A stretch of DNA of 64,000 nt, from the NCBI GenBank assembly GCA_905178155.1, contig CAJINV010000003.1, positions 4,623,863-4,687,862 of the forward strand, in the 5' to 3' direction. Below the pieces are notes generated by a model that saw only the letters and a program-made list of their open reading frames with translations, had not been told where the DNA came from and searched no databases. Below, in pieces: positions 8,375-62,717 of this stretch. Position 1 is the stretch's first letter; each line of letters begins with the position of its first letter. Position numbers and translations under genes: made by a program. The DNA comes from Amoebophrya sp. A120. Lineage: Eukaryota > Protista > Dinoflagellata.

Positions 8375-10262
8375 ATGGCGCCTCCCGATCAGAGCACGAA
8401 CCCTCCGCCCAGCTGCCTGCCCAGCGATGCCTTTTCGCATTTCCAACAGCGTGAGGCGCAGTTGTTGCAGTACAATGAGGAGCTGGAGCGTGAGAAGAAT
8501 CGGGCCATTTCCAAAGCGCAGGAGGCGATGCGAGACGTGGAAAATTTGGATTTCAAGAACTACCAGCCATCTTTTCTCAAGAGTAAAGCCATGCAACCCC
8601 TGATCGATGCGACCAGTGGGGATTACCACCTAACAGATCCTGGTATGTGGTTATGCTTCGATAGCACAGAGACAGATTCATGATTTAGTGTTTGCTCGCG
8701 TGCGGAAAAGAAACCTGCAGTATTGGCACATTCCTTCGGCCTTTTACGGGACTCGAGCCACTCTTTTCTGACTGCTTGGTCGTCCAAGGTCGAAGTTACT
8801 TATCTTGTTCGGGCGTTGGGTCCCAGAAAAGCTTTCTGTTGACGTGAAAAAATTTAATACAGCTCTTTCGCATGCACGTAACGCCGAGGCCGAGCCTGCT
8901 CCTGTGCCACTTCAAACCGTTAAGGAACCTCCACCACCGGCCGTCGCGGATTTGCAACCGGCAATCGCAACCAAAACCAAGCTCGTGCACCCCATGGCTT
9001 CCGCAAACGAAGTCGAAACACTCCAAAGTACTTAACACAAATATTGCCTGGCACACAAGCAAATGTTGGCCACATCATGATTATTCAACCGCAGGGATGA
9101 AACAAGGTTCTCTTGCAACTGGTATTATGTGCTTTCGAAATCTGTACTGTAAACTTACTGACACTAGCAGGCAGCGATGCTTCCCACGTCGACCACATCG
9201 AATGATGGTCGAAGGAATGCTATGTAGTAGGTTTGTTTTTTTTCGAAAAATTCCAGATACCATTCGCTTCCAGAAGGCACGAATTATCGCTCTCCAAGAG
9301 GAACTCGACAAGGGGATTAAGCAGCTTACGCAGCGCGATGGGGACAATAACCAGCTGCGGGCAGACAACAAAGCTCTCACCGAAGAGAACAAAAGACTAT
9401 CGAGACAACACGTAATCGCGGAGGGGCACCAAGACAAACTCAAGAAGACAGTGGCTTTGCTCGAACAAAAAATTCGCGACTTTGAGAAGGACCTCGGCGA
9501 TGTAAAAAGATAGTCTTGATGATTCTAGCGGGTTCTTCACGTGCGTGCGTAAACAGAGGTGTCGGGGTCTTTTCCTTTCTTTCTCACGCCATTCGCGCGA
9601 GTCATCTATAAATACCCAGCAGTTTCTCTTCCATTCACGACTTTTCTCCTTACGAAAACGAATACAATAAATCACACCTTCAGGCCCGAAAAGAAAATGA
9701 CCAGCTGAGTCTGCAATCGCGGAAACAAGAGCAAGATATCAACAGCAAGGAAGCGCGCGTAAATCGCCTGCTGGAGGACTGCGAGCGATACCGCACCAGT
9801 TTACGCGAACTCCGCAGCCAAGACCAAGACAAAACAAAATCTGACCGCTATCAGTGTGAAAATTGTCCCAGCTACCAACGTGATTTCGCAACTGCGACGA
9901 AAGAACCTCTGAGGTTGGTTTTCGGGCATTCAATTTCAGTGTCACTTTGTTGCTTTTCCTACACGACCGCCGAAGGCGTCGTGGCGCATCATTGATGAAG
10001 AAACATGATGTCATGATTGATGCGTTATGGCTTGGGCAATTTTCGTGTGAATCACGGCAAAGAACTGGATCGGCTGTTGGCGGAGAATCGCAAGATCGAG
10101 CGGCAACGAAACGAACTGGTGGCAGCCTTTAAAAAGCAGATGAAGCTTATTGACATCTTGAAAAAGCAAAGGACGCACCTCGAAGCTGCAAGGGTGCTTT
10201 CTTTTACCGAGGACGAATTTGTGCGTATCCTAGATCTCGGGGACAAACTCGGCTCGGCATAA
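8375..10262 (+). CDS. TEX9: TEX9-like coiled-coil centrosomal/ciliary protein, 5 exons
   Basis: C-terminus ELVAAFKKQMKLIDILKKQRTHLEAARVLSFTEDEF matches TEX9 family; GT-AG introns 8643-8826, 9028-9256, 9502-9683; non-canonical intron 9849-10058. Confidence 0.8.
9849..10058 (+). mobile_element. Decayed introner-like non-canonical intron in TEX9
   Basis: Left end tatcagtgtgaaaattgtcccagc; right end reverse complement gattcacacgaaaattgcccaagc; imperfect TSD accgc/acggc; removal gives in-frame KSDR|KELDR. Confidence 0.7.
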
Positions 10263-11126
10263 TTCGGAACCAGCGCTACCACCTTCAAAGGAAGATAGAG
10301 AATCGCTCAAGTCACAGTGACATATCGAATAGTGAATCACGCAGCTCTCAAGGTTAAAAAACATCAAGGCTTCGTGGAGAGCTGCTGCAGACCGTGTGGC
10401 GTGCCATGTTCCCCCACTGATCCACCCTTGTATGGAAAGTAAGACCTCAGAAGTAAAGTGTCTTCTCGTTGCATCGGAATCGTACTGTCTCTATAATAAA
10501 AGGTGAAGCGCGACTAAAGTGAGACCAAACATGCATACAAGAACGAAGAGTGCTTCAGCATTGATTTCCATGAGAGCCGTTTGATGAAGAAATTTTGCAA
10601 GGACTCCTCGGTAGGACTCGCCGTGCGAGGAACGCCAGCGAGCGTACCGAGAGTTGACGAGAAGGACTTGTTGAAGTATGCGTCAGAGAGACCACAGAGA
10701 GAGCTACTGCACTGCGAGCGACATGAGGCTTTAGCGTTCTCGATAATCGCGTCTCGATGAATGGATCGTCGCAGCAGGCCCGAGGCACCCCAATCAATCC
10801 GCAATTTATTTGATACTTTGTTTATAGAATTAGAAAGGAGGGAATTACAATAGGCCCCACTCGTCGTACACGATCACATTCACACCCCCACCTGCATCTG
10901 AGCGATTCTGTTCGCAACGGTCTTGCACTCGCAAAAAAACCTATCCAAAACCGCATTGGATTCATACCTAGAGAGCCACATCGACTACACTGCCGGTTGT
11001 GCCAGTTGTACCCAGCGAGGCAGCATCCTGATGTTGTCGTTGAAGATGCATCAGCCACCCGCAACCCGCGTGGACGGGGTTTCTGCGAGTGGATAGTAGA
11101 TCGGACACAGAACAACGCAGAGGAGA

Positions 11127-14100
11127 ATGGCAGATAGCACCATCGGAAGCGGGACCGGGGGCGGGCCACCGAGGCCTGACCCATTGGAAATGAGCTTCAC
11201 CCAGCAGGGACTCGGGCCGATCGGGTTGGGCGATACACAAGGCTACTCCGCGAAAGTGTCACCCGGGGAAACATTGAAGACGCTCGACGAGACGGATAAG
11301 GTACTTCTAGCCGAAGATTGTCTCTGCCTTGAGTTTGTACCAATACGTTGTTGAAATGAGTCAAGAACAACAGGTGCGGCACAGGCTGTTGTCCTTCTTG
11401 AAAGTAATTACTCACATGATAATTGATCACTGACACTTATTCATTTTTCAACTCCACCATAGTCGCCAGCGAATCGCGGGACTGTGTTGGCGGTTGCTGC
11501 ATTAGGGAAGCTGGCGCACCGAGCGAAGGAGAATATAGAGGAGCAGCGAATCCACGGGCGGTACAAGGTGAAGCTCTGGCAGTTCCAGGAATTTCTGATG
11601 CAAGAAAAAGGGCTTCGGGTAGCCTGCAGCACACTTCCGTTCACAATTGTCCTGTGGTATCCAGGTGGACAGCGGTAGCGAGCTGAGGTAGGGGGTTGCA
11701 GCGCTATGTCAGCGAAAGCACTGACGAACTTGAAATGACAAAATAAGAAGACCAGTACAGCACAACACGTAAACTCCATTGCGGTCGTGAAAAAACGACC
11801 AAAATTCTTTCCCTACACCATATTCGCTGCACAATTTTCCTTTCCATAACCTGATCGTGTTTTTTTGGCTGAGTTCGGTCCACACGGACGTCCACGCGAG
11901 TTACCAGACCCGACTGGCTATCACCAGCGAATTCAACACGCGAAACGTATCGCGAGTAGCGGTCAGCCAGTTCGGAGAGGATCCAGGGCGCAACTTCCGA
12001 GAATTCAATCTGAAAACGCTAAACGACGCGACGGAGGTGAATTTGTGGCTGAAATTCGTTGCCGCCCCGATTATCAGCCAGGATACCACGGGCGGGATCG
12101 TCTCCTCCTACAACAAGCTCGCCGGCGGAATCCGCATCGTGCAGCGCCGCGCGAAGTCGGCCGAGTGCGACGTCCCCGACGACGTGGCCCAGCACCTGCT
12201 GACGGGCGTGACCTGCCACGCCGCGATTGAAAGCGACGACGATTACTCCACGGGCGTGCCAAAGCTCGCCCCCGACGGCAAAGAGCGCTATGACAAAGCC
12301 TTCATCGGCGGCAGCATGCTGCGAGAGGAGCCCAAGCACCGCTTCGTCGCCTGGCTGATGAGCGACCGAATTCTCTCTGAGAACATGCGCCGGGTAGATA
12401 GCCTGATCAACGGCTTTTGGCTCGACGACGACTCACTGGACGTTGCGGTGCAGGGGGTGTTTTACAACGGAAATACGCAAATGTACTTTTTACTTCCTTG
12501 TTTTGCTTCTTTTTCATTAAGACAAGTCACGGACTGCACGTCGGATGCGAGGATCATGCACATCAATTTTCTTGCTCTTGCATGAGGTGATGATTTGTAT
12601 GATCCTTACCTTACGATGACCTGGTGCTAGCGTCGACCGAGGTCCGAGTTGAAAAAGAACGATGCTTTTTTCAGGTATGCGTTTATGAATCTGGAGATCG
12701 AGTTTACGAAGGCAGGCAACTTGGAGATTGTGAACGACGTGCGGACGGTGAAGAGCGATTTGTACCCGTCCAGCATGGAAGTGCTCCCGGATGCCGTCTT
12801 CTTAATGCTGTTCGTGATTCTGCTCACGCAGGAGATCCGGCAGATCCGCGAGGATAGCCAGGAGGGTTTTTTGAAGGAATACCTGCTGGACTACTGGAAC
12901 TGGCTCGACTGGCTGGTCATCTTCACCTCTGCCGCCATCCTGATCAGCTACTGGTTCACCTACATCTGGCTCCTCAACCTGGAGTCCATGATCAAGGATT
13001 TGGGCACCGCGCCGGCGCAGATCCCGTCCGACGCCATCGATGACAACGTGTACAATGTGGTGCTCTGGGAAAACCTGACCTACCAGGAGAAGGTCCGCGA
13101 CATTATCGACTGGCTCGAGGGCCTGATCGACTTCAAGGTGTGGGCGGACCTCTCGCTCTTCTGGTTCAACATCCTCAACATGCTCCGCTTCTTCAAGGGT
13201 TTCCGCGGCCAGCCACGCATCGCAGTCCTGCTCGAAACCTTCAACAACGCCAGCATCGTAAGTGATCATAGCCTGGTGTTCTAGCTGTAGCTATTTCTCT
13301 ACTTCGACGCACAGTGTAGTTGATAGAGCAGATGAGATCGGCGATGGAATTCAGATTCGATATTGCTTGGCGATGCACCAAAAAAAAATTATCACAGGAC
13401 TTCGCGCATTTCCTGACAATATTCCTGGTGGTTTTTTTGAATTATGCGATCGCCGGTTACGTTTTGTACGGGGTGTACATTTCCGACTTCTCCACATTTT
13501 CCCGGTCCATCGAAGCCTTGTTCGGTACGATGGCTCCTTCTCTGTTTCAATGTTGAAAGAATGAATGTCGAATCATTGTTGAGTACGCCGGATGATGGAA
13601 CACGACGCACTGCGAATGCGAGGTGTGAGCCTGAGCACACCTTGTTTTTAGGTTCTACAGAAAGACTGAACCTGAAATACACACAACCTCCATACAGCAA
13701 TGCTCTTCGGCGAGATGAAGTTCAACGAAATGTACGATATTTCGCCGGGCCTCAGTGTGGTTTTTTTCTGGTCGTTCATGGTCGCGCTGCCTTTCTTGCT
13801 TCTCAACATGCTGCTGTCGCTGGTAATCGAAAATTTTCTCTACGTCAAGAGAGTATGCGGTGATGGAGGAAAAGGCGTCTTCGCGCAGGTATGTTGTCTT
13901 CATCAGTTTTACTCGACCAGTTTTTTCCATGCAGTCAAGATGATCGCGGATGAAGATAAACAAAACAAAATCGAATTTCATTGATTCCGAACAGATGTGG
14001 GAGTACGTTGACAACATGCGATGGCAGTACAGCTACGAGGGCGCAAAAAAGAGTGCACCGATAGACACGCTCTTGGTGAAAACCGTGCTGGCGCAAAATC

Positions 14101-24385: not shown

Positions 24386-27300
24386 ATGGAACAAGACGGT
24401 TCCGACGTGGATCTATCCGACGACGACCTGGATCCGTTGACCGCAGAGCAATGCCGGACGAAACTGCTGCTGCTCCTCGAGGAGCGCAAGCGCAAAAACC
24501 GGCTCGAGGAGCGGTTGGTGCTGAAGATGCGGAACCTGAACGACCAGCTGGCGGAAAAGCGGGATCAAGTCGAGGGACTGCAGCGCACCCTGGAAACCGA
24601 ACAGGCAAAAGTGGAAAACGAGGTGCGCACGCGCAGGGCGGAGCGTCAGAAGCGGCTTTCCGAGATGGACGTGCGCATTCGGCAGTACCTCACGGAGGTG
24701 CTGTTCCGCAGCAAACAGCAACCCAAAGCGCTCGCAAACAAGGAGGGCGGCGCCGAGCAGGACCAACAGCTGGCCAAACCCGCCAGCGCCGGGGGCTCGT
24801 CTGCCAATTTGTCCATGATTCTCGTCAGCTATTTCAAGCCGGGCACGTCGGAACGCTGCGATTTGCGGTACCGCGTCAACGAAACGACTTCCGTGCGGCA
24901 GCTTCGCTACGACAGCTGCAAATACTGGCAGCTAGATGGCGACGAATTTGTCGTTCGCACCTCGGTTGGATCCAAAGTTCAAGGCGACATGATGGTGCAC
25001 GAGGTAATTGCGTAAAAAGCTGGGTGACCGATTCCTAAAGGCTTAGACGATGAATATAGAGAGATTTTTACTCATTTCAGACCGAGATAGCGTGAGCTGC
25101 ATTCAAAATTGCTGATCTGGTAACCAAAAAGTTTTGCCTACGACTTATTGTTGCTTTCCAGAACAAGATGACCACCAAGAAGGCAACCGCAAGATTTCAA
25201 AACTTCTGACACCCAGATTTTCAAAGACGGCGAGATCGCACAAGTGTTTCTGCTTCCCCGGATCATGAACAACACGGTGGTGAGTGAAGCGGAGAAGAAG
25301 TCGATCCTCCCCAAGACCGGGAAGCTTGGACGTAAGAGCGCTAGCCTCGAGGAGGGAGCAATGTTGGCCGGAATTGGTGCCACCGGCGAGCAGGAACTGC
25401 GGAAGTGCGGCGGCGGCAGCTTGATGGTCAAGATTGCGGAGTTGAAGCCGAGTGAGTACCTGGCGCGCATACGATTTCGCGACATCCTCGTGTATCTGTT
25501 ACTTGCGTTGATGTGGGCGTGGCTCTGGCTGTCGAACCAACGCTGGCCCGGGCAGAGTTTTGCAATCGTCGAAGACATGGCCAGGGTGCTCGTCCACGAC
25601 GATTTCTACCAGATCAACTCCACCGCGCAGGCACTCGTGTGGTGGCAGCGGTCCTACTCCCGGTTTCTCAGTCCCCCCTTCACGCAGTACAACCTACCCT
25701 TCGGATTTTTGCGGTTGCGGCAGCAAAAGGTCCAGTACACCACGTGTCCGAGTCCCATCCTCAGCCTGGGAGAGGCGCTCCTCGCCGGCCGGAATTGCAC
25801 CGACGACAGTGCGCCCGAGACGTCCGGGATGTTGTCCGAGGGGCTGTACTATCAAATGTAAAAATGTCTGGGTCTGGAAGATTGCAAGGTTTGCCATGCA
25901 TATTTTGCATGACCCGTGATGTCTGCGATGTATGCCCCAGCATTACAATTTTTTTGCGGGTATCTTGATGCCTATCCCGCATGACAAATGCCCTCTCCGC
26001 GGAGCAAAAACTGGACGCCTCTTGCTGCTCATGCAATACAGATTTTTTTAGCTTCCAAAAATAGCATCACAAGTTGCATTCTTCCAGACCCAGACACTTT
26101 TGCAATTCATATGTACGCGTACTGGAATCACGTCGATTCGCACGGCCGCATCAAGGGCGGGAACTACGGCCGCGGCCCCACGCCGCCCTACATGTACACC
26201 TCCGACGGCAAACTGTACACGCTGCAGGGCAGCAGCGGCGAGAGCTTTGACAGCAGCGGGTACCTGGTGGACTACAACCTGATGGAGGACGCGCCGCTCG
26301 TGGCGACCAGCATCGAGCAGGACATTTTGGCGTTCCACCAAAACAACTGGCTCGACGCGCGGACGCGTCTGATTACCTGGTCCGTCACCGTGTACAACCC
26401 GCACTACGATCTTTTTCTCTCGCTGGACTACATTCTGGAAACCCCTCCGGGCGGGCAGGCGCTGGCGCGGATCCAGGTGATGCCGTTCCGGCCCAACAAC
26501 CGGGAAACGGACCAGGAGAACATGGAGGCCGCCACGTTTCACATCCGCCTGCTGTGCGCCCTATACGTGCTGTTCTCGGTGATTCCCATGGAGGTGGCCG
26601 CCCGGGAGCGCGTGTACAAGGCCGGAGGCAAGTATTTGATCACGCTGATGGGAATCGCGGACCAGATGATCGTCCTGACCACCTTCGTCGCGTACTTCTG
26701 GCAGCTCGTGCTGTTCGGCCAGGACGCGACGGTGGACGTGATGCGCGACGGGAAGACGCAGTTCCAGCACTTTGCGCAGGACGCCGAGCGCTACCGCGTC
26801 GCCTTCGAGGTGGATGGGTTGCTGGTCATCTTCCTTATGGTGCGGCTGTCGCGGTACCTGGCGATTTCCCGCCGGATCTACCTGTTGTGGAAGGCGCTCG
26901 ACCGGCTGGCCCGCCGGTTCTTCTACCTGATGGCGGTCAATGTGATGCTTTTAATCTTCTGGACCTTCCTGGGCAACACCTTGTTCGGCCGGATGTACAA
27001 CGACGAGCACTTATTGAGAGGAAAAATGCTTCCACGCCCAAAGTTGCAATAATTTGTGATGCGAAGTTTCCAAATGAATATGAAAACTTTTTGTCAGAGC
27101 GGGGTAACAAACCTCCCATAAGAAGTTACCGGCTAACTTCTCATCCACCCGGCCAGGTGCATGAGAAGTTAGCCTCAGCGAGCCCGTCCGCGGTTGCTAC
27201 CGCCTTCCCCGTCGGGCTCGCGCCCGTCCGTCGTTCCCATTCCCAGATCTCGGCTGGAGGGGGGGGGTTGAGTACATGTAAATAAAGGAGTTGAGCACTT

Positions 27301-28823
27301 TAATATATGCGCGCAAAAGTAATTCGCGGAATGAATCTCTACAAGTAGCATTTGATACGCATTTCTACTCCTAGAGTCTCTAGCATGCATGTAAAAGTAA
27401 GAAGTAGTATTTGTTTGATATGCATTTTCCCCCCCTGGTTCCTTCGTGTTGGTTGGTTTGGTTGATATGCATTTTCCCCCCTTGCGAGTCTGGTTTAACT
27501 CGCAACCAAACCAACCAACACGAAGTAACCAGGGGGGTAACCAGGGGGGAAAGTGCATAGGTTTAACTCGCAGCCAACTGCTCGCGCGCATACGTGCGTA
27601 GATCTCTTGACATCCGTCTTGAGGTTTAGGGCCGGAGCGCTCTCAACACTGCTGAAGCTTTAGAACCTGAAGGGAGTGCACGCCCGAAAGGATCAGGGCG
27701 CAAGGCTTTTCGATAGCGCTTTTTTCCAACTGGCTTCATAATTCGCTTACTCTGTTGCTTTTTTCTCCTTTTTTCCCGGGACCAACTGGCACCAAGAAGT
27801 TTTTCTTTTCGCTTGTCCCCACCCGGACAAATCGGTGTAGGTCTAGGTCTAGGCTTAGGACCATCAAATGTCCTCCTCCGCGTCCGCTGTTCCGACCTCC
27901 CACCGTCCCGCCGTCGTAAAATCTTCTTTCCTCCTTCAGTCCCGGATCGCCGCGACGTCGTGTTTCAGGGTTTTAGGGATTTAGGGTTCCTAGTTCGATT
28001 CACATGCATATAGAGACTCCGCATGTCAAGCGCTAAATTACCTTTACATGTACTCAACCCCCCCCTCCAGCCGAGTCCGAGATCTGGGAATGGGAACGAC
28101 GGACGGGCGCGAGCCGGACGGGGAAGGCGGTAGCAACCGCGGACGGGCTCGCTGAGGCTAACTTCTCATCCACCCGGCCGGGTGGATGAGAAGTTAGCCG
28201 GTAACTTCCTATGAGAGGTTTGTTACCCCGCTCTCATGCATGAAAGGAGTATGCGTCTTTCTGATGCAGAGTCTAGGCGTTTACCGTGTCGCTTGCATGA
28301 CAAGCGCCGCTCTTGCTGGGATCTTTTGGAATACAAATTTTTGCTATTCGCGACTGGAAATCTGTGATGCTGATAGATGCAAGAGGGCGAATGTTTCGTT
28401 TATTTGAAAGGTTTGCAATACAAATGCTCCCAGGTTCGGGGGTGGGGGCATTTTTCATTGTAATAGCACTGGCACAGCATAAGGATAAGCCTGATCTCCG
28501 TGTTCCGACTCTACCGCGGGGACGGCCGCTTCCTCTGGATGCCCGATCTGCGGCAGTCGCTCCAGCGGGACACGAGTTTCTACGTGGCCGCCAGTTGCTA
28601 CGCGGTGTGCTTCTACGGATCACTGGTTTTATTGCTGCAAAAAACGTTCGTGGCACTCGCAATCGAGAGCTTTGCGTTGATCAAACTCAGCTACGATCCG
28701 CGGTCCCAAGCAAATTGGAACCGGGAGCGAATATTTCGTTGGGTGCTGCCGGATCTGGTCTACAACATGGGTGCAACTCTGGTAGAGCGGCTCGAACAAA
28801 AATTGTCCCAAGATAAAACTTGA
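24386..28823 (+). CDS. Second polycystin-2-like channel with N-terminal coiled coil and possible ubiquitin-like domain, 4 exons
   Basis: GFLRLRQQKV, FDSSGY, NNWLDARTR, VYNPHYDLF motifs and pore SLISVFRLYRGD; GT-AG intron 25004-25216; non-canonical introns 25850-26116 and 27012-28470. Confidence 0.85.
25850..26116 (+). mobile_element. Introner family A copy 1 (element 25850-26111 plus TSD tgtac)
   Basis: ~30-bp TIR tatcaaatgtaaaaatgtctgggtctggaag; 5-bp TSD; removal gives EGLY|AYWN in frame. Confidence 0.92.
27012..28470 (+). mobile_element. Introner (element 27012-28465 plus TSD gcact) carrying a nested TIR element
   Basis: ~70-bp imperfect TIR (tattgagaggaaaaatgcttccac vs reverse complement tattacaatgaaaaatgcccccac); removal gives NDEH-W-HSIRISLISVFR in frame. 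Confidence 0.88.
27097..28233. mobile_element. Non-autonomous TIR element with ~185-bp near-perfect TIRs and 3-bp TSD (tca), possibly Harbinger-like
   Basis: gagcggggtaacaaacctc...gaggtttgttaccccgctc; tca at 27094-27096 and 28234-28236; no transposase ORF. Confidence 0.88.
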
Positions 28824-29516: not shown

Positions 29517-32287
29517 ATGGAGGGTGATTCGCCCGCGGTCGGAGGCGGCGCCGAGTCCAGCCAGTCGCCCGACAAGATCAGCCGCGGAAAGACACGAGTC
29601 ATGAGTGGCAAGCAGCGGCACCCAACGGACCCGACGAAAAAGGAAGAGGCAGCGAGCAAGGTGGAGGACAGCATGTTTCTCACCCCCGGTGGCATCAATG
29701 AAGTGTTTAAGAACCCTGCGCACCGCCGGGACCAATCACTTCTCGACCGACTGGTAGAAGCGCTCAAAAAGATGGTGGTGGAGCGCTTCCGGAGCTTGGA
29801 GCAGGCCTTCTACCAATTTGCCGAGAAGGGTTTCCTCACCCAAGCGCATCTGGACAAAATGGTGAAGGCGGTCAAAATCCAAGTCGGTATTCGTTTACTT
29901 ATCATTTTTGTGGCCGATATATGAACATTGGGATCCGCCAAGGGACTCTTGTCCGCGCTGAGGCACGTTTGAATTTGATATTTAGCTCTCACCAACCTTC
30001 GTCGAGATTTTGCTTTCTGCTGTCTGGTAAGTAGCCAAGTTGCGACTGGCATTTTGTGATATCTATTTCTCGTCAGACGGACGCGTGGTGCGTGCAATCC
30101 ACGATAGGATGGTAAACCCGGACACGAAAGTGGTGGGATTTCTAGAGTTTCAGACGGTTATGATGGACATGACTCTGCGGAAACTGAAAGGCCAGCTCCA
30201 AACGTACACGAGGAATCATCGCCGTGTGCGAGCGAAGATAACGGCTTTCGTGCGGTCCCTGGTCTTTCAAAACACCGAAACAATGTCTGCGGCGGTTACC
30301 CGTTTCCAGTCAAAATTGACCCTCAACTTTGCCGCGCGGCTTTGGAACTCGATACGACGAAAGATATCCGACTCGAACAATCTCAGCATGTCGCAATGTA
30401 TTGATTCTTCCTTGAAGTTTAAGGGATTTGGTTTTTACATACAAAGTTTAGCTCGAAGATCGACTCCATTCGTCACTGTCCCTTCTGAAGCAATTCTGCT
30501 CCATGCAGTAAAACAATTCCGCACTCATTCACTACAGTTTTGGGCCATATCCGCTCGTGGAAGCAGTTTTTCCACGAATACGAGTACGAATTTTTCGGCG
30601 AAATTTTCAAGAGGCTGGATAGGCAACAGAGTAACAGCGTGGATGTATTCCACATGATGCTGGCCCTGGTTTTTTTGAGTCCCGAGACGAACAAAAAGGT
30701 ACTATCGATGCGGACTTTGTTTTCGGCGCGAAGAAGAGTTTCTCACTAGGAGGATTTTGTTTTATCAATTTGTTCAGTTTCATTGTGCATTTTTCCTGCA
30801 GACGCTCGAACACAAATATGTTCAGGTTCGGTTTGAGACTGTGTTTCGGGTATTTGACACGGACGACGACGGTTGTCTTACGACGGACCAAATTTTGAAG
30901 CTGTACCAGACCATCCGCACGCTGATTCCTGTTCTCGCCAACGACGAGGTCACAGCCGCGGCGAACACTTTCTTCAACGACGAACTGGGCACGCAAGAAG
31001 GCCGCCGGTTGTTTGACTTCACCATGGACCTGTACAAAAGTACGTCCAGCAATTTGCTGACGTGGGATGAGCTGTGGTCCCTGTTCGACTACTCAACCTA
31101 CCTGAAGGATAACCTCATCCCCGGGCTGCACCAACTCAATTGGGTACTGCTGCTTGATGAAACTGTAACCAACATTACCATTGTACCTTCAGCAGGAGTG
31201 AAGCAACAAAATTTGAATTGACTGTTGCCACAGATGACGCCCATGCGCATGTGTCCATGGCATGAAAAATATGGTAGCGTACTGCCATGCTTAGTCAAAT
31301 GATGTGCCGATGCAGGTGCTGAGCGAAGACGTGGTGAGCAATAAACAGAAAGCCAAGGGCGACGGCGGTGGTGCGGAAGCGAAAACGGACATGAAACAGC
31401 AGCTTGCGAGGTCACAGTCTGAGGCGCATCTGTGGTCGGCCGGAGTGAAGCAAGGGTAAGTAAACGTATGCGCACGAGCAAGGAAGATTCTCTCTGTCTC
31501 TATTCATTATCCTGCCTCCTTTGCCTGCTCTTCAAGCTCATTTTTTTTTTCGAAAGAACCAGAAAGGTTTTCCTCTTCGGAACCAAAACAGGTATTGTGC
31601 TGCGCTTCGGGGCGAGTGGAAGTACGTTCCACGCACACTTTATCCTCGTGAACTAGGTGAGTCCGCACCTCAGGAACAGGGTTGTCATATTCGAAGTACT
31701 TACTGATGCGAACAAGACCAGCTATTTCAAAGCGCACCCGACTCATCTAGGAAAAGGTTGCAACGGGCATAAGTATCTAAGCGCACCCGATTCCTTCGAT
31801 AGGAAAAGCTTGCAACGCTGTTTTTCCCTGAGGTGCGGATACTTTTCATCACGACATAGAAGCCCAAATTGACAGCCAGGAATATCTCTTTTGGAATCCC
31901 GGGACCGGGCGCGATAACCGGGGCACCAGCGGAATTGCGCTTGGGAAGCCGGGTAGCGCATTGGCCGCGCTGGCAGTCGGCAGTAAGGGAGCTGCTTCCT
32001 CCACGTCAAGACAGGAAGAATCAACCACCCCGGAGGCCGATGCGGAGGGAGAGCCGGCGACCAAGCAAAAGTTCCAGAAACTGCGGCAGTCTGTGTCTGA
32101 TACCATGTTTGACCAGACCGCGAGCGTTCCGAAGGTCCACTCCAAGGCCTGGGGCCGCGAGGCCATGTTGCGGTTTCACCTCTATTCGCTTGCGAAAGCA
32201 AAGAAGAAGCAGGGCGAGGGGGAGCTCCGAGAAGATATCGGGGCGGACAAAAGTGCATTGGACAAGGCGCTAGCTTCTGCTTTCTGA
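29517..32287 (+). CDS. EF-hand calcium-binding protein, multi-exon; last junctions uncertain
   Basis: FRVFDTDDDGCLTTDQI and FKRLDRQQSNSVD EF-hand loops; GT-AG introns 29887-30076, 30398-30537, 30699-30825, 31144-31315. Confidence 0.75.
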
Positions 32288-32288
32288 G

Positions 32289-33561
32289 TACTAAGGGGAA
32301 AAGTTCAAGAATAAGAATTTCAACAAAAAAATCATCACTGGCCCTTGAGCAATCCCAGAGCCGGGCGCCCGGTTGCTGGTTGCGGGGCAGGATTGCTGGA
32401 AGGCCGAGCGGCGGAAGGGCACACCAGCAGGCCCTGTCGGTCCAGAAACCGGAGCACCCCGTCGATTCCGCAGGCGAGCCTGTTCCTGATGGCAGTTCAG
32501 TGAAAACACAAGAAAAGCCTCTCCGGCGCCCGACGTCTTGCCTCCTTCTCCCCTAATGAAGGCATGACCCTCCACGCACTGAACTAGTTAACTTCTCTCG
32601 GTCTACTTGAGCCAGTCTTTTTAACATGAAGAGCCTTCATCATTCACAGAAAACAGACTTACTTAGGCGCCGGCTTTGGCGCTCTACTTTCTTGTAGGTC
32701 TACAGGGGCTGCTGAATGAATATGAAATATAGGACCCGAGGCTGCTGAAGTGCAGCTCATGAAGGAGTGGCCCCACAAAGATATAGAAAAGGCCTCCGAC
32801 ACAGGTAGCATTTAGCTTCTGCGCTTTACAACTATGAGACACCAGCTTGGCCGTTATCTAAAATCTCAAGAATACCAACAAGGGGGACCTCCCAAAGGGG
32901 TCCCTAAATCCGTATTCTTGAGATTTTAGATTACGGCCAAATCGAGGGAATCAGGTGCGTCTAAAATCTCAAGAATACCAACAAGGGGGTCCGCCCAAGA
33001 CACCTCCCCGAACAGGGGTTTTCGGGGAGGTGTCTTGGTTTGGGGCTCTTTTCGCACCCCCATCCGATCAGCCAAATCGACCGACTCAGGTGCATCTAAA
33101 ATCTCAAGAATACCAGAAAGGGGGTCGCCAAGTGGCCAACTCAGGTGCGTCTAAAATCTGAAGAATGCCAAAAAGTGGGCAACTTTGGTGCCCGCGCAGA
33201 AGTTCGTCGGAATCGGCACAACTTCCGGGCCCCTGCCAAACGTCCGAGGTGAACTCCCTTAGTGTGTGGCGATTAGTGCTTTACTTTGTGGAGGTTAGTA
33301 GTTTACTGCGTCCGATGTCCCGTTCGGGCGCAGGAAGGCCTCCTCCGCTACAGTGCCATAGCAGGACCTTTCTGAAAGCAGCCCGACCGAATGAGTTGCG
33401 CGGCCTTTGCTATCCGCCCCCTGTTAGTGTGTGTTTTCCAAAAATGGGATGAGTGGCGTTTGCAAATAAAACAGCACGCAGCTACGCTGTGAACTGACCG
33501 CGACGAGTCGCGTATTGATTTTTTTGTCAGTTTTCTTATTCTTGAACTTTTCCCCTTAGTA
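32289..33561. mobile_element. 1273-bp non-autonomous TIR element with TAC...GTA ends and 5-bp TSD ctgag
   Basis: TIR tactaaggggaaaagttcaagaataagaa / ttcttattcttgaacttttccccttagta; internal repeats tctaaaatctcaagaatacca at about 32857, 32960, 33095, 33150 and inverted at about 32912. Confidence 0.9.
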
Positions 33562-33572: not shown

Positions 33573-33633
33573 ATCGGGGCGGACAAAAGTGCATTGGACA
33601 AGGCGCTAGCTTCTGCTTTCTGAGGAACGCATC
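33573..33633 (+). repeat. 58-bp tandem duplication of the EF-hand gene 3' end
   Basis: Copy of 32237-32288 plus gaacgc, bounded by atc microhomology. Confidence 0.9.
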
Positions 33634-42400: not shown

Positions 42401-44599
42401 GGCCTGCTGAAGCAGAAGATCCTTGCCAGCTCTAGATCTGATGCGGCAAACGCAACGACGTCCCGTGTTGACTTCGAACTCGCGCAACTCGGGCATGCCC
42501 AGCGGGTTACAAATCACAATCTGTTTCCGAAAGGTGAAACCACGGAGGCGCTGTCCGACGAACCGCACGAGCAGGACGTCGAAGGAAACGACGATGCAGA
42601 AGAAACCTTCCGTGGCACCTCTTTGAAAGCTTTGGTGCACCGAACCTCGGAGGCCAGCCCAAAGCGTCGCAGCGCCGAATCGTGCGGCGATCGGGCGGCG
42701 GCTATCCCCAAGCTTCACGCCGAAGATGGCGACAGGCCTCCGCGAGACGGCGGGAGCAGCGAAAACGCAAACGCGCCCCACCCTGGGTTGTGGTCGACAC
42801 GCATTCAGGATTTCCCGAGGCAAGCCGAGGCAATTTTTCGGAAACGGCGGAGCAACGCCATGGTGAAGGACTCACACGGCGGTGAGAACCCTTTGGAGCT
42901 GACGTTACCGGGGATGCACATGCCTCCGCCCGAGCCGGCGGTTCCCGACCTGCCTCTGCAAGGCGGATGTGGGATCGCGAACTGGAACTCTCTGCTCGCT
43001 AACCGAGGACCTGTATTGTGATTTACGTGAACCATGAAATGTCTGTGTACTGTCTTCCTCTTTCTTTGCGGTTCTTTCATCTATTCATTGCATGAGAACA
43101 ACATAGAAAGCGGTCTCTCAAATGGATGTGCAGGTATCACTCGAAGAGCCGGGCGTGGCCGCGCACCCTCGGGAGGAGTTGGAGGCGCGACCGTCGCAGG
43201 TGCAGGCACCGAACATTGCGCAGGTGTCCGAAATGCGGCCCAATGTTGTGGACGACAAAGTTGCGCGCGCGATGATGCGGGTTCGAAAGGGGCGGCTCCC
43301 GGAATCGTTCTTCGAGTCCAACTATCAAATGTAAAAATGTCTGGGTCTGGAAACTTGTGATGCTGAGTGGCGTAGCATGAGGGGGCCACAAGTGCTGGCT
43401 CAGCATGACAAATTTCTGAGCTTGTAGGTGTTGCCTGTTCTGCATGACAAACTGCGTCTCCGCATGACAGAAAAATGCGGCTCTTGGGCAACGTGCAGGA
43501 CAGATTTTAGAGTCATGCCAGACAAGCATGACAAACATGCATTCTTCCAGACCCAGACATTTTTACATTTGATACCAACCGATTGCGCAATCGAGTCTCG
43601 CACGAGCAGCTGGTAGAAGCGCACGATCGTTCAGCAGCCGGGGAGCACTTTTCTGCCGCGAGCGACAACATGGGAGGAAAAGTAGACATTGCCCCAACGC
43701 AAGCGTTGCATTCCATTTCGAGTGACAGTCCCTTGGCCCGATTGCGCGGCGGAACGAGGTCGAACAAATCGTCGCCCCGGAGGCAGCAAGAGAGCCCTAG
43801 TACTCTCGGAATCGGATTCCGATTCGCGACGAACACATCGCCCGGCCGCCCCGAGGAACCTGTCCCACCTCGGGTGCAGCAGGCTGACGAAGAAAATGCG
43901 GCGGAAGTAGTAAATCGCTCCAACGTCACCCGGCCGGTTTTTGCAGCCTTCTCCACGACCTCCCCGTCCGCAAATGCTGCAGCGGTTGGACAGGGTCTTC
44001 AGCGGGTTTCGCTAAGTGCGCGGAAACGCTCCGGACAAACACCGACCAGTCCCAGGTCGCGATACGTGTTTCATTACGACTCCCCCTCGGACATGCACAG
44101 CTCGGTGCGGAATGAGAAAGCAGCGGGAGTTGCAGCAACCGCAAGCGTGAGCGATAGCAGAACGGTGTCGCATTCTAGGCGGCCAGCCAGCAAAGAAGTA
44201 TAACAATGGTTTTTAAGGATGGTGTCTCTTGTTCCGTGCGCTCACAAAAAATTAAAATATGGGTAAACATGATTTAGACCACGACACTGATTTACTGATT
44301 TTGTTGCACAGAACTACGCCGCCGAGCTGTCCGAAGTGCCTTTGAGTGAGATTGAGTCGGAGCTCGACCGTATGCGAAGCAACCTTGAGGAGTCCATCCG
44401 CCGGTCACCACCGCGGTCGACGCGTCGTGTGGTCGATGTACAGCAGGAGGAATTACGGCGGGCAATTCAGATTGCGGTAAAAAAAGACGAACTGGACCTG
44501 TTGCTGCAAAACTTTGCGAAAAACAAGGAGGTATTCGAGAAGGTTTGCGAGCTCGTCGCGCACGAATTGGCCGACGGAGGAAATAAACCGTCGACGTAA
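39495..44599 (+). CDS. Large Ser/Ala/Pro-rich, probably disordered hypothetical protein, 5 exons
   Basis: ORFs joined in frame by GT-AG introns 42000-42175, 43013-43106, 44198-44311 and introner 43323-43579. Confidence 0.7.
43323..43579 (+). mobile_element. Introner family A-type copy 3 (element 43323-43574 plus TSD ccaac)
   Basis: Perfect 30-bp TIR tatcaaatgtaaaaatgtctgggtctggaa; more divergent interior; removal gives FFESN|RLRNR in frame. Confidence 0.92.
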
Positions 44600-48930: not shown

Positions 48931-50887
48931 CGAGAATCAGGAAAGCGGTAGCCCGAGAAACAAACCGAGAGGCCGAAAGGCCGAGAAACGACCGACAGGC
49001 CAAGGGGCCGAAAGGCCGAGAAGGGGCCGAAAGGCCGAGAAGGGGCCGAAAGGCCGAGAAGGGGCCGAAAGGCCGAGAAGGGGCCGAAAGGCCGAGAAAG
49101 GGCCGAAAGGCCGAGAAGGGGGGCGAAAGGCCGAGAAGGGGCCGAAAGGCCCAGAAGCCTCTCTTTCTCCGATTTCTCTTTTCTCGGTTTCTCTTTCTCG
49201 GCTGTCCTTTCCTCGGCTTCCCTTTTTTCGGTTTCGCTGTCTCGGTTTCTCTTTCTTTGTTTCTCTTGTCGCGGTTTCTCTTTCTCCGATTTCTTTTTTC
49301 TCGGTTTCTCTTTCGCCGGTTCGGTTTCTCTCACTCATCCCGGCTTCTCTTTTCCCGGTTGCCCTTTCGCCGGCTTCTCTTTTCGCGATTTCCCTTTTCC
49401 CGGTTTTTCTTTTCCCATTCCCGGTTTTGCTTTTCCCGGTTTCTCTTTTCCCGGCTTCTCTTTTCTCGGTTTCATTTTTCTTTTCCCGGCTTTTGTTTGC
49501 ATTTCCGGGCTTGGCTCTTTTCTCAGCCCTTCGGCTTCTCGGCCTTTCGGCTTCTCGGCCTGTCGGCTCCTCGGCCTGTCGGCTTCTCGGCCTTTCGGCT
49601 ACCCGGCCTCTCGGCTCCTCGGCCTTTCGGCTACCCGGCCTTTCGGCTACCCGGCCTTTCGGCTTCTCGGCCTTTCGGACGGCCTTTCGGCTTCTCGGCC
49701 TTTCGGCTTCTCGGCCTTTCGGCTTCTCGGCCTTTCGGCTTTCTCGGCCTTTCGGCTTTCTCGGCCTTTCGGCTTTCTCGGCCTTTCGGCTTTCTCGGCC
49801 TTTCGGCTTTCTAAAGCCGAGAAAATAAAATGGAAACTACCGGGAAAAGAGAAGCCCGGAAATGAAATGGAAACCGGGAAAAGAGAAGCCCGGAAATTAA
49901 ATGGAAACCGGGAAAAGAAAAACCCGGAAAAGAGGAGCCGAGAACCCGAGAAAAGAGAAACCGGGAAAAGACAAACCGGGGAAAGAGAAACCCGGAAAAG
50001 AGGAGCCGAGAGCCCGAGAATGGGCGAGGAGGGACACCGGGAAAAGACAAACCGAGAAAAGGGAAACTCAGAAAAGAGAAACCGGAAAAAGAGAAACCGA
50101 GAAAAGAGAAACCGAGAAAAGAGACGAAACCGAGAAAAGAGACGAAACCGAGGAAAGAAACGAAACCGAGAAAAGAGACGAAACCGAGAAAAGAGACGAA
50201 ACCAAGAAAAGAGAAACCGGGAAAAGAGAAACCGAGAAAAGAGAAACCGAGAAAAGAGACGAAACCGAGAAAAGAGACGAAACCGAGGAAAGAAACGAAA
50301 CCGAGAAAAGAGACGAAACCGAGAAAAGAGACGAAACCAAGAAAAGAGAAACCGGGAAAAGAGAAACCGAGAAAAGAGAAACCGAGAAAAGAGACGAAAC
50401 CGAGAAAAGAGACGAAACCGAGGAAAGAAACGAAACCGAGAAAAGAGACGAAACCGAGAAAAGAGACGAAACCAAGAAAAGAGAAACCGGGAAAAGAGAA
50501 ACCGAGAGAGAAGAAAGAGAAACCGAGAAAGAAGAAACCGAGAAAGAAGAAACCGAGAAAAGAGAAACCGAGAATCCCGGTGCTCGGTTTCCAATTCTCG
50601 GTTTCCAATTCTCGGTTTCCAATTCTCGGTTTCCAATTCTCGGTTTCCAATTCCCGGTTTCCAATTCCCGGTTTCCAATTCCCGGTTTCCAATTCCCGGT
50701 TTCCAATTCTCGGTTTCCAATTCTCGGTTTGCAATTCCCGGTTTGCAATTCCCGGTTTCCAATTCCCGGTTTGCAATTCCCGGTTTCCAATTCCCGGTTT
50801 CCGGTTTCCGGTTTGCAATTCTCGGTTTCCAATTCTCGGTTTCCGGTTTCCGGTTTGCAATTCTCGGTTTCCAATTCCTGATTCTCG
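48931..50887. repeat. Composite fold-back minisatellite with five blocks in alternating orientation
   Basis: Units ggccgaaaggccgagaag(g), tttctcggtttctc, their reverse complements, and ccaattctcggttt; bounded by 13-bp IR cgagaatcaggaa/ttcctgattctcg. Confidence 0.9.
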
Positions 50888-51173
50888 GTTTTTTTGTGCC
50901 TGGACATGGATTGACTTGATACGTGTGAGTTGAGGAGCTCGAGGTTCGATGAGAGAGGAACGAATTATTGCAAGGATATCCGTTCTTGCTCGAGATGCGG
51001 TTGACGCCGCATTTTCTCGGAAGAGAGCAATTCTTGGTCTCTCGGTCACTGCAACATCATACATACGTATGTATGCACTGAAACAAGGCGAGCCATCGGC
51101 ATGCGTCTGCTACTGCTTTTAGAAGAGGAGGAATAAGTAGGAGGATTGAAGCATCAGGGGATCATCATCAATC

Positions 51174-57380: not shown

Positions 57381-57652
57381 ACGAGCATTTTTTCTGAGTG
57401 ATCATGGAGACAAAGAAGTGAAAATGGGCGATCGATCAATCAGAATCATCTTCATCTTTGTGCAGAGATGCGGTGATGAGCGAAAAAAAGCGGAGGCGCA
57501 CATCAATCGGTGAATCGCAAGAGAAAGTATCATGCCAGATCTGCACGCGAAAATGAATCACGAGCTGTGGTTTTTCTTGTGAGAGGAGGAGTTGAAGATC
57601 ATATAGGCAGGATAACAAAAAATACAAGTTGCAAAATATAGACTTCATCAAC

Positions 57653-59221: not shown

Positions 59222-60601
59222 CTGATCTGGTAACCAAATGCGTGCGCGCGCGCGCGCAGAGCGCGCGCCGGCCCACGAAGCCGGCGCGCGCGCTCTGCGC
59301 GCTTGCGATATTGCTTAGCAAACGCAGCGCGAAGGCAGTTGCCGTTACCATATAGGGCAACCGCCGGGGGGCGTGAAGGTCAGGGAAATGGCCAGAAATG
59401 AAGCGGGAGAAGGGAAAAAAAGCGGAGCAGATGGGAAAATGGCCAGGAGGTCAAAAATGTCGCAAAAACGGCAGAAATCAAGCGGGAGAAGGAGAAAAGA
59501 AGACATTTTTGCGGCTTGGCCCACGTGGTATCTGAAAAAGAGGCTGACTATTTTTTGCTTCGCGCGCTGGGCAGCTGCGTTGGAGCAGCAGGTCCGCGAC
59601 CTGTCCGGAAGCCTTGGGCCGCTTCGTAACTGGAAAAAGTTGGAAAAAAAAGGCAAAAAAATTACGCCATAACGTGGGCGGAAGCAATCGTCGGATTTTG
59701 TGCAGATCACCCGGACCACTTAGAAAATGAAAAAAGATGGGAAATTGCGCAAAAGCGCAACCCCTCCGCAGGCTTCAAAACTGCCAGTCAGGTGGGGGCG
59801 GTGAAAGTGTGCAGGTCGCCCGGGCCACTTGGGAAATGGGAAAAGAAGAAAAATCCTGCAAAAGCGCAACCCCTCCGCAGGCTTCAAAACTACCAGTCAG
59901 ATGCGGGCGGTGAAAGTGTGCAGGTCGCTGGGGCCACTTGAAAACCAGAAAAAGCGGAAAAATAGCGCAAAAGCGCAATCCCTCCGCAGGCTTCAAAACT
60001 GCCAGCCAGATGCGGGCGGTGGAAGTGTGCAGGTCGCCCGGGATACTTGGAAACCAGAAAAAAGAGCGAAAATGAAAAAAAATTGCGAACCCTCGGCGGG
60101 CTTAGAAACTGGCCACCAAGGGCGGTCCGGCGGGCGCGCGCTTGCGCCGTACCATCGCGATTGGGAAAAAAAAACCGCACTAGAAGCGGGCGGGGGTATG
60201 TTACAAAATCCCCATTTGCCCTGGGTTGTGGGCAGAAATTCGGCATCTTCCCCGGGTCTGAAGTGGACGATTTTGGTGGGCCAGCCCGGGTTCTTTGGTT
60301 TGCGGTTTTCCACATACCTTCCTGACCAGGTGGCCAGTTTGTCATGCAGGGGGCTAGAAAGGATGCCCCGTTGCGAAGTTGGATCGGCCACATACCTTCC
60401 TGGCCAGGTGGCCAGTTTGTCATGCACGGGGCTAGAAAGGATGCCCCGCTGCGAGCCAGGTGGCCAGTTTGTCACGCAGGGGGTTAGAAAGGATTCCCCG
60501 CTGCGAAATAGCAGACCGGATTTCGCTTTCAATGCTTATCGCAGGAGCCTGCGGGCCGCCGCGGGCGACAGTAGTTGTCCGCGGCCCTTTAGGGCCGCGG
60601 A
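59222..60601. repeat. Non-coding repeat element with flanking GC hairpins and internal tandem repeats
   Basis: Hairpins 59252-59302 and 60578-60601; 109-bp-period repeats at 59751, 59860, 59969; second repeat at 60311, 60389 and partial at about 60456. Confidence 0.65.
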
Positions 60602-61026
60602 GATACGAAAGTGCTCCTGTATACATCGAGGAAAACCAAAATCGAAACAAGAGCATGCTTGCTGTCCTAGTCTCCTCTACGGGTATCTCTGCGCTGTTTT
60701 AGTCTGAGTGTTTGTGTTTCCGCTTTTGCACCGGAGGAGTTCATGCACATGCCAGTGGGGGACTTCGCTAACACCATTTTTGGTACTTTTGCCTAGCACC
60801 TGAGTGAACAATAAAACGATGGAGTCATTCGTGCGAACAGGCAGAGGCCTTTGTAAAGAATCTTGATCATGCGAACGTATGTTTTCTGCATGGCACCACT
60901 GAGCGTAATCGATGAACAACACACCTGTGCTTTCTCAGGTCTCCCCTTACGTTTTCCTTTTCGATTTTCTCTCGTGGCAGAAAACACGTCTGCACAAGAG
61001 TTCTTTTGTGTAGGACGTTTTCGGTA

Positions 61027-61066
61027 ATTAAATTTTTTTTTTTTTTAAAAAAAAAAAAAATTTAAT
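61027..61066. repeat. Perfect 40-bp AT palindrome attaaa-T14-A14-tttaat
   Basis: Read directly; ends 40 bp upstream of the ATG at 61106. Confidence 0.85.
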
Positions 61067-61105
61067 ACGCATTGCGTTGCATTAACATCTTCCAGCATAG
61101 GCACC

Positions 61106-62717
61106 ATGGCGTTCGTCCGTCGCGCGTCGCGGCACCGGGCGAGTTTAGGGGACGCCGAGTTCCCCTACGAGGCCGGGCGGTATGTGCTCTACGTCTCCTA
61201 CGCCTGCCCGTGGGCGAATCGGGCCGCGCTGGTGGCGAAACTGAAGGGTTTGGACGAGAAAGTTCTTCCAATCGTGTCCGTGCATCCCACGTGGCAGCGC
61301 ACGAAGCCGGGCGTGGACTCGCACTGCGGCTGGGTGTTCCGCGCGCCGGGTGCCGGCGTGGTCCCACCCCCTCGCCCTCCTGGACAATGTCACCGCGCAG
61401 GAGGGCAAGGTGGCCAAGGGCTCCGCGCTGAACGAGGTGAGTGCGGCGGGCGAGGCGGGCAAGCAGACCGAAATTCGCACGGCGAACTGCGGGGTGGACA
61501 GCTATTCGGGCTGGAACTGCCGCACGCTGCGCGAGCTCTACGAGAAGTGCGGCGACTCGCTCGAGACCGGGGGAAAATTCACCACGCCGCTGTTGTTCGA
61601 CCGGAAACAGCGCAAAATCGTGAATAACGAGTATTTTGAGTAAAAACGCCCCCACCCCAGAGTTGTCATGCAAATCTGCACGCCAAAAAAGTTAAAGTTT
61701 CTCATGCGGAGCGCCATGAGAGGCATTTTTTACCCGTTTTTTGGAAAAATTTGTGACGCTATAATCAGCATGATATACTAGAACTGTGATGCTGCTGAAT
61801 CAACAGCAGGATTACTCTACGAGGACAAATTTGTCATGCCAAACGACCAAAGCTGGCTGATTTGTCTAGCAGATTCCCCATGTTGACTCTGGTGTGGGGA
61901 CGTTTTTACAAATGATAACGAGTCCTCGGAAATCATTCTGCAGCTGAACAATTGGCCGGCCGACGCGAGCAACGGCGCGACCACCGGAAGTGTGGATTTG
62001 TGTATGATCGGAAATGGAGAAGGCGTAGACTTTGCATTTTTGTAGACTGGAGGTAAAGCAGCTCCTGGTTTCGTCGCTGAGGACGAGAATTTTTTTATGC
62101 GCAACATACTGATTCACTTTCAACACAGTTCGAATTCTCGGTCGGAGCAGAGGATCAAGATTACCGCAGCAAAAATCTGTACTCTCGCACATAGGAAGTT
62201 GAGAAGCAATCCTTTATTTTCCCGATCCATACCCGACCCTCTTCATTTGAAGAAGGATATCGACGAGTGGAACGAGTTCACCTACGACCGCATCAACGAC
62301 GGCGTGTACCAGTGCGGGTTTGCGCGCACCCAGGTCGCGTACGACCGGGCGGTGGAGAAGCTTTCGACCAGCATGCAGAAGCTCGAGGACCGGTTCGCGG
62401 AGGAACCAAACCGCGCGTTTCTGGTCGGCGACCAGCTCACGATTGCCGACGTCCGGCTGTTTCAAACTTTAGTTCGCATGGACGAGTGCTACGTGATCTA
62501 CTTCAAGTGCTACGCCGCGAGTCTGCGAAATTTCCCATTCCTCTTGCGGTACACCGTGCGGATCTACCAGATGCCCGAGGTCCAGGCCTGCACCTTTGTC
62601 CGGGACTGCAAGATCCACTATTTCACCTCGCACCCGCACCTGAATGCGTTCGCCGTGGTCCCGCGGGATTCACAGGTCGTCGAATTGCTGGAGCAACCAC
62701 CCGACACGCTGATCTAA
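61106..62717 (+). CDS. Glutathionyl-hydroquinone reductase (ECM4/YqjG-type GST), with a +1 frameshift near 61362-61371
   Basis: GRYVLYVSYACPWANR, GWVF, FTTPLLFD...IVNNESSEII, INDGVYQCGFARTQ, LTIADVRLFQTLVRMD, KIHYFTSH. Confidence 0.92.
61632..61922 (+). mobile_element. Introner (element 61632-61917 plus TSD acgag)
   Basis: ~48-bp imperfect TIR (tattttgagtaaaaacgcccccaccccagagt vs reverse complement tatcatttgtaaaaacgtccccacaccagagt); removal restores IVNNE|SSEII. Confidence 0.92.

Follow-up and report, generated by a model that had tools for sequence, protein, structure and literature searches.

The DNA analyzed here, a window of 64,000 nucleotides from Amoebophrya sp. A120 (contig CAJINV010000003.1, positions 4,623,863 to 4,687,862), carries introners, and on balance we favor the reading that these non-coding DNA-transposon elements, inserted in A120 exons, are removed exactly from RNA by a relaxed U2-type spliceosome. 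Farhat et al. (2021, PMC7789003) already described this class in this genome, terminal motif included, and the finding as first written, in a reading of the letters alone (the sequence-only reading), adds little; what is added here is a likely cut register and the dispensability of target-site duplication (TSD) identity. The seven insertions first reported (starting at 9849, 11658, 25850, 27012, 36569, 43323, and 61632) were confirmed on read-through to lie in six plus-strand genes and to carry an in-frame stop each, and deletion of the element plus 5 nt restored an open frame in 7/7 cases. Three elements had been overlooked: 32289-33561, 62003-62231, and one nested inside 27012. The exon adjoining insertion 11658 matches Amoebophrya sp. 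A120 protein P0001 at 100% identity (77% with a transcriptome protein, 72% with strain A25), and a second window exon has 100% identity to another A120 protein, P0007; by these identities the elements almost certainly belong to the A120 genome, for which introners have been described. The elements, named below by their first position, are as follows (TIR, terminal inverted repeat).

9849 to 10053, plus strand: degenerate introner of 205 nt in a coiled-coil gene; flanks ACCGC (9844-9848) and ACGGC (10054-10058); right end GAT.
11658 to 11848, plus strand: degenerate introner of 191 nt in the polycystin-channel gene of P0001; flanks TGTGG and ACCTG, TSD lost; left end degenerate.
25850 to 26111, plus strand: family-A introner of 262 nt in a second polycystin gene; TSD TGTAC.
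27012 to 28465, plus strand: introner of ~314 nt, enlarged to 1454 nt by a nested element; TSD GCACT.
27097 to 28233, no strand assigned: nested non-coding TIR element of 1137 nt inside 27012; arms of ~158 nt (97%); 3-bp TSD TCA.
32289 to 33561, plus strand: eighth element, 1273 nt, outside coding sequence; TAC ends, perfect 20-nt TIR; TSD CTGAG, which contains a stop codon.
36569 to 36830, plus strand: family-A introner of 262 nt in a kinesin gene, between the motor and an FHA-like segment; TSD TCCAG.
43323 to 43574, plus strand: family-A introner of 252 nt; TSD CCAAC.
61632 to 61917, plus strand: introner of 286 nt within the IVNNESSEII motif of a glutathionyl-hydroquinone reductase gene; TSD ACGAG.
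62003 to 62231, plus strand: ninth element, degenerate, 229 nt, supported by homology; flanks TTGTG and CCCGA.

Removal from RNA was read from contig sets X1-X4 (four runs of one sample), which were taken as RNA on the basis of their skipped canonical introns and one poly(A)-ended contig. The DNA runs come from different samples, and the joint evidence from the mixed DNA and RNA contigs comprises 15 listed of 99 joints. When non-canonical junctions were allowed, as had been proposed, exact skips appeared at 9849 and 11658. The contigs of X1-X4 join 9846 to 10057, skipping 210 nt (205 + 5) with a cut ambiguity of 2 nt, and 11656 to 11853, skipping 196 nt (191 + 5) with an ambiguity of 1 nt. Both junctions were present in 4/4 runs, with no letters between the joined pieces, beside four canonical introns and the poly(A) end, and the intron ends as printed at them are GC..CG and GT..CT. 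The inserts are not retained, RNA depth is zero inside 9849, and an in-frame GT-AG alternative at 11658 (GT at 11657, AG at 11872) is unused. P0001 and two orthologues align at the 11658 site without gap or insertion. The TSDs described as 5-bp repeats are perfect in 25850, 27012, 36569, 43323, and 61632, but 9849 has one mismatch and at 11658 the duplication is lost, the flanks being alike at 1/5 letters. Since the element and exactly 5 nt are nevertheless skipped at 11658, matching TSDs are not needed for removal. The fixed 5-nt stagger proposed earlier thus holds even with unmatched flanks, and TSD identity is dispensable for removal. Nor is there support for RTA or AAAA as a strict requirement at each end: 9849 and 11658 each lack one of them (at 11658 the left end has GACA in place of AAAA), yet both are spliced.

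Two further removals were inferred from contig starts and depth. At 27012, record 2 of X1 begins at 28465 with 240 letters elsewhere, and the calculated depth is 3.663 as against 3.66 observed; at 43323, a piece of X1 record 7 begins exactly at 43575, and an upstream end at 43317 or 43316 gives a depth of 5.83 or 5.85, respectively, with 5.84 observed. No RNA junction for 25850 or 36569 is among the joints listed, and no RNA aligned at 61632 or 62003, the latter being supported by homology. On the DNA side, contigs of ~25x that begin in unique flanks reach 23-55 nt into 25850, 27012, 36569, and 43323 at their ends, so these sites are filled in DNA, and no DNA joint skipping an element is among the 15 listed. 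One low-depth contig keeps an unspliced canonical intron; no RNA contig keeps the elements.

Because the flank copies of 9849 and 11658 have diverged, the position of the cut can be read from these two junctions. The mRNA keeps the upstream flank copy and loses most of the downstream copy, and the permitted shifts, counted from the first T of the element, are -2 to 0 at 9849 and -1 or 0 at 11658. At 62003, retention of the upstream copy was predicted beforehand and agrees with three homologues; the predicted shift was 0, and shift -1 fits better. With shift -1 the product reads DLYP, the sequence also present in P0004 and in the three PDB alignments listed (of 14 hits); shift 0 gives C and shift -2 gives D at the variable position. 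Excision of 62002-62235 in register -1 thereby restores the DLYP motif of the reductase family; if the downstream copy is kept instead, the D-L-x-P motif is disrupted, and splicing by the GT-AG option would insert 35 residues that none of the three homologues has. All nine predominant A120 non-canonical pairs in Table S4 of Farhat et al. begin NT, in placements that are aligner-dependent (PMC7789003). On the basis of the two RNA junctions, the 62003 homology, and Table S4, the evidence favors as likely the register N/TAT...ATA/NNNN (slashes mark the cuts), one base before the element and four bases after it. Among 114 oriented elements, no donor end but 4 acceptor ends have a base other than T at TIR position 1, the corresponding counts being 2 and 1 at position 2 and 2 and 2 at position 3; the acceptor end of 9849 likewise departs at position 1. 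The canonical donors checked in the window read GTA in 6/6 cases. Register -1 is the only register in which a TSD of the form NNAGG yields a canonical GT-AG intron, and such TSDs may account for the 15% of canonical A120 introns that have inverted and direct repeats. Our literature search found no published statement of the N/TAT...ATA/NNNN register.

The terminal pattern itself is well beyond chance. The strict form TSD5-TAY-N7-AAA...TTT-N7-RTA-TSD5 occurs six times in the window, whereas of 100 first-order Markov simulations 97 had none and 3 had one, and TAT-N7-AAAA occurs 19 times against 5.6 ± 2.4, a count reached by 0/100 shuffles. All seven insertions begin TAT, as the TAY...RTA description required, but the right end of 9849 is GAT; the longer consensus TAY-N7-AAAA-N-YG holds at 12/14 ends, although only the good end had been quoted for 9849 and 11658 and N-YG is weak outside family A. 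Its presentation as a hidden code fails, since the motif was already worded in Farhat et al. 2021 (PMC7789003). A set of related loci was assembled from metagenome contigs (163 stretches, 160 loci), found by the family-A end in 12/64 parts of the collection. A scan that ignored the motif and required only inverted repeats bounded by 5-bp direct repeats picked out 25850, 27012, 36569, 43323, 61632, and 32289 in the window. In the related loci longer than 800 nt, such a scan gave 244 hits, of which 211 begin TAT and 188 have TAY-N7-AAA at at least one end. Such TAY-N7-AAA hits numbered 3, 0, 0, 0, and 0 at TSD lengths of 4, 6, 7, 8, and 9 in the related loci, with 37 six-bp hits in all. Of 61 distinct family-A pairs picked with no filter on the TSD, 59 are bounded by an exact 5-bp repeat and none by one of 6-9 bp, and these 59 repeats comprise 56 distinct sequences, in accordance with the claim that insertion is not sequence-specific. 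The family-A copies that could be oriented divide 26 to 23 of 49. These data show that the elements insert without target preference and in both orientations.

The interiors are less distinct than had been described: 25850, 36569, and 43323 are one family, designated family A (25850 and 36569 share 83% identity and lie in opposite orientations). Five elements (25850, 36569, 43323, 61632, and the 27012 host) have in common a repeated internal 8-mer, which reads TGT[CG]ATGC or the complementary sequence. The repeat status of the elements is evident from the thousands of DNA contigs that align to element bins and from the three family-A copies in the window. That the terminus is common to several families stands, 99/210 elements lying outside family A even though the related loci were selected through it; their ends read TAT-S-N6-AAAA-R, with little N-YG. 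TAC ends were found in the eighth element and at 2/247 family-A ends of the related loci, otherwise none. With no match of at least 100 nt in the fetched related loci, 9849, 11658, and 62003 look like singletons. No cut placement gives GT-AG in any of the seven window insertions, and none of them has the GT/GC...AG termini of U2-type introns, but 6/82 oriented copies in the related loci are readable as GT-AG, so that its absence is not a property of the class. The family-A pattern was absent from viral contigs.

One transposase lineage is the simplest reading for the shared ends. The search for long copies encoding a DDE transposase, which the sequence-only reading had suggested, revealed no transposase domain in 52 open reading frames of the 8 elements longer than 400 nt (four weak, unrelated matches fell below the cut-off), and no autonomous copy was found among these eight. 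Membership of IS3EU is not supported, the TSD being 5 bp rather than 6 bp and no transposase being seen. The best lead is an integrase-like enzyme, by way of the published A120 family fam38 discussed below.

According to the mechanism that we favor, the elements would be mobilized in trans by a single transposase lineage, probably integrase-like and Ginger/IS3EU-related. The element with its 5 nt is present in DNA and missing from RNA (two sites direct, two by contig starts and depth), its removal being independent of TSD identity. In the mRNA, the first four TSD bases would come from the upstream copy and the fifth from the downstream one. The TA of the element would then supply +2/+3 of a GTA-type donor in which +1 is free, and the 3' site would be fixed by its distance from the element end, with no requirement for AG. 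With the same motif at each end, an insertion would work as a ready intron in either orientation and at any site. The machinery would be a U2-type spliceosome, a relaxed form of which is favored by the canonical register, the apparent constraint on +2 U, the retention of spliceosomal parts, and the precedent of Fritillaria; A120 has 83/89 spliceosomal proteins and U2, U4, U5, and U6 (Farhat et al. 2021, PMC7789003). More tentatively, and with slightly less confidence than we place in the spliceosome, we propose that A120 may have a second splicing code, ready-made as N/TAT...ATA/NNNN on both ends of every copy of one transposon lineage, which would stay in the canonical register while +2 U alone is required and the 3' cut falls four bases beyond the element. 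Two variants were rejected. TATCC, which we take to resemble the U12 donor, was counted at 19/114 donor ends and 20/114 acceptor ends; with no donor-side enrichment, the minor (U12-type) spliceosome was set aside. U11 and U12 are reported absent in A120 (PMC7789003). A branch A held at -7, on the model of the fixed-distance systems in the accessible part of bioRxiv 2022.06.08.495308, is lacking in 2/114.

Several points weigh against this interpretation. Behind the register stand two RNA junctions, both from a single sample, and a single homology case, in which the A25 orthologue and one other homologue have N, not Y, at the DLYP position. Table S4 is subject to the placement of ambiguous junctions by the aligner, and 8/9 of its pairs end AN, which may reflect unstranded reporting (PMC7789003). 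The 0 versus 4 asymmetry between donor and acceptor ends is not significant alone, and the strand calls come from a codon model checked in-sample only (48/48). U1 small nuclear RNA is undetected in A120 (PMC7789003). Perfect TSDs display no spliceosomal preference (AG at positions 3-4 in 11/97, compared with 5, 5, and 8 elsewhere; the C deficit at TSD position 5 has p = 0.054), no invariant branch adenosine was found (the A at -7 is replaced in 2/114), and no transposase domain was found in the eight longest elements.

A possible, if more doubtful, explanation accepts the same elements and the same register and assigns the removal to a separate, hairpin-guided, non-spliceosomal machinery, Euglena-like, that cuts at fixed distances from a terminal stem. 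The Euglena code, N3-CDG...CH'G-N5-6, likewise sets the cuts at an offset from motifs that pair; the spacer is longer on the 3' side and the products are circular (as given in the available portion of PMC12501133). Young elements fold strongly end to end (z -9.5 for 36569, -2.5 for 9849), the donor and acceptor logos are symmetric, AG and a fixed branch A are absent, U1 was not found, and a sub-terminal stem at 11658 persists roughly in register. Nevertheless, the spliced 11658 element folds like its shuffles (z -0.35), its first 17 bases being unpaired with the far end, and 62003 folds worse than shuffles (z +1.3). Hairpin strength across 36569, 9849, 11658, and 62003 does not appear to track splicing. 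Four of the seven loose TIR positions often fail to pair: among 61 family-A copies, pairing was found in 43 at position 4 (which has C-C and G-G mismatches), 46 at position 5, 28 at position 7, and 38 at position 10. Moreover, the register is the one that gives a canonical GT-AG intron from an AG/G site, which a separate machine need not respect.

It is very improbable that the elements are instead excised from the DNA of expressing cells, by a programmed or transposase-driven process, such that RNA never holds them. Their transposon shape would suit that account, as would the origin of the DNA and RNA in different samples and the listing of 15 of 99 joints, but the ~25x DNA contigs enter four elements with no skip among the listed joints, and exact removal of 11658 without TSD homology is hard to obtain by DNA repair. 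The low-depth contig that holds an unspliced canonical intron, when no contig holds an element, gives no direct pre-mRNA evidence either way. Least credible, with almost no probability left to it and already refuted for 9849 and 11658, is the proposal that the insertions kill their genes, remain in mRNA, or leave by nearby GT-AG sites: no junction is available in RNA for 25850, 36569, 61632, or 62003 and in-frame GT-AG alternatives exist at 11658 and 62003, but the 11658 junction is non-canonical in all four runs, depth inside 9849 is zero, the GT-AG product at 62003 would contain the 35 residues that three homologues lack, and Farhat et al. validated by RNA-seq a share of 65% non-canonical introns in A120 (PMC7789003).

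The host genes that could be named are two polycystin channels, one kinesin, and one glutathionyl-hydroquinone reductase. The coiled-coil gene interrupted by 9849 had no Pfam match and is presumably TEX9-like. The product of the kinesin gene matches Kinesin PF00225 with E 1e-100, and its FHA and KIF1B matches are weak (E 0.005-0.009). The IVNNESSEII motif of the reductase is uninterrupted in three homologues and PDB chains; P0007 is a 137-aa reductase fragment that begins downstream of both junctions (61632 and 62003). At about 61360-61380 the reductase gene contains a single frame change within a C run, without an intron signal, which is likely an assembly error. The weight-matrix pair score of 62003 (16.8) is within the range of chance pairs. 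A weight-matrix scan for degenerate pairs gave 59 pairs versus 8-18 in five simulations, mostly on known-element ends, and no new degenerate element could be singled out in the window. A TIR-like end at 30580 was dismissed as chance, lying in coding sequence after a canonical acceptor.

The element nested in 27012 (27097-28233) is, we presume, Harbinger-like, and DNA contigs of other copies of the 27012 family join 27078 to 28234. The enlarged introner is apparently still excised exactly, as a 1459-nt intron, a length that exceeds the 1000-nt limit of the published intron analysis. The eighth element has at 32833-33181 four copies of a 56-nt unit, in both orientations, that repeat part of its own TIR (AAAATCTCAAGAATA); these units are likely transposase-binding sites. 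An exact 52-nt duplication stands on both sides of this element (32237-32288 and 33573-33624), and DNA contigs stop exactly at 32288 and resume at 33595 without running into the element ends. Filled and empty alleles may coexist at this site and have been merged in the assembly. Among the related loci, L025 contains a 1104-nt TAT...ATA element (505-1608) with a 5-bp TSD, ends without an A tract, and a 238-codon open frame without Pfam match. Two others, L014 3084-3344 and L059 2011-2333, have perfect 18-nt inverted repeats, 5-bp direct repeats, and ends TAA or TTG, and are possibly truncated or of different families. RNA reads from another strain (run X8, at 25850-25883) join the family-A end to foreign flank, and some transcripts retain family A. 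Runs X8 and X9, which have the same species label and represent another strain, gave 7 and 2 reads, all with the family-A end and foreign flanks; family A is common to several strains. Elsewhere in the window, short tandem repeats with 14-17-nt units form nested inverted arrays at 48960-50900, and a GC-rich palindrome (59240-59302) is followed by repeats of ~115 and ~60 nt within 59230-60520, possibly the end of another mobile element.

Old elements with diverged TSDs serve as natural reporters of the cut site, and those available point to one register. Should that register hold genome-wide, the published absence of a clear splicing signature would become a rule, and gene models would be fixed in a parasite of bloom-forming dinoflagellates; a donor +2 U and an acceptor four bases past the element would be exact predictions by which a relaxed spliceosome and a Euglena-like machine could be told apart. 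The second splicing code, if real, would mean that a spliceosome without U1, freed from the G+1 and AG rules, reads a transposon end as a splice signal. Such a code would account for how random insertions into exons, in the tens of thousands, were tolerated, and the borders of introns that are ambiguous at present, about 43,000, could then be computed.

The sequence-only reading judged the class to be, probably, the known Amoebophrya introners, and comparison with Farhat et al. 2021 (PMC7789003) agrees, removal from RNA included: we find no difference in kind. The inverted repeat of the published A120 introners consists of TAT, 7 loose bases, and a minimum of 3 A, the direct repeats span 3-5 nt (the legend of Fig. 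S19 gives 5 bp), and the length is ~240 nt; these introners are removed from RNA and have no internal transposase, 15% of canonical introns have the inverted- and direct-repeat structure, and the legend of Fig. 3 calls the border position unknown and leaves the excision mechanism open (PMC7789003). In the window, TAT-N7-AAA is present at 12/14 ends, the direct repeat is perfect in 5/7, has one mismatch in 1/7, and is lost in 1/7, and removal at non-GT-AG borders is direct at 9849 and 11658 and probable at 27012 and 43323. Gozashti et al. 2025 (PMC12130899), of whose dataset 41 of 58 A120 rows were considered, list among those rows A120 families as TIR DNA elements, similar in size to ours, for most of which the superfamily is given as 'Unknown' and the TSD is called at 2-6 or not at all. 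Among the same rows, fam38 is annotated 'Ginger; 5-bp TSD, TA/TA termini', with open reading frames homologous to Copia/Gypsy, and fam12 has a length of 252-260 nt and 331 copies, family A being likened to it by size alone. TA..TA termini are common to our elements and to IS3EU/GingerRoot as described in the sections of PMC10045372 at hand, where the TSD is usually 6 bp, whereas here it is 5 bp in 59/61 and 6 bp in 0/61. The hAT5 elements, in the excerpt of PMC12730594 consulted, have 5-bp TSDs as well, and the likeness is one of TSD length.

Euglenid nonconventional introns (in the portion of PMC12501133 cited above) also have an origin resembling miniature inverted-repeat transposable elements and no GT-AG, and they probably agree with the A120 elements in terminal pairing, cuts at fixed offsets, and a longer 3' spacer. 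They differ in their motif (CDG/CHG versus TAT-N7-AAAA), in their spacers (3 and 5-6 versus probable values of 1 and 4 here), and in their unrelated lineage; the euglenid signature N3-CDG...CHG-N5-6/R was not found, the element ends being TAT...ATA. The non-canonical introns of Fritillaria borealis are likewise transposon-derived, with TIR and TSD, and are handled by a conserved U2-type spliceosome without GT-AG, but they prefer AG-AC and AG-AT and keep U1, whereas the A120 ends are NT-NN and U1 is undetected (PMC11282704; PMC13326754, in the part available). In Amoebophrya from Karlodinium, canonical introns and U1 are present, according to the accessible part of PMC12005148, which makes that parasite a natural control for intron type.

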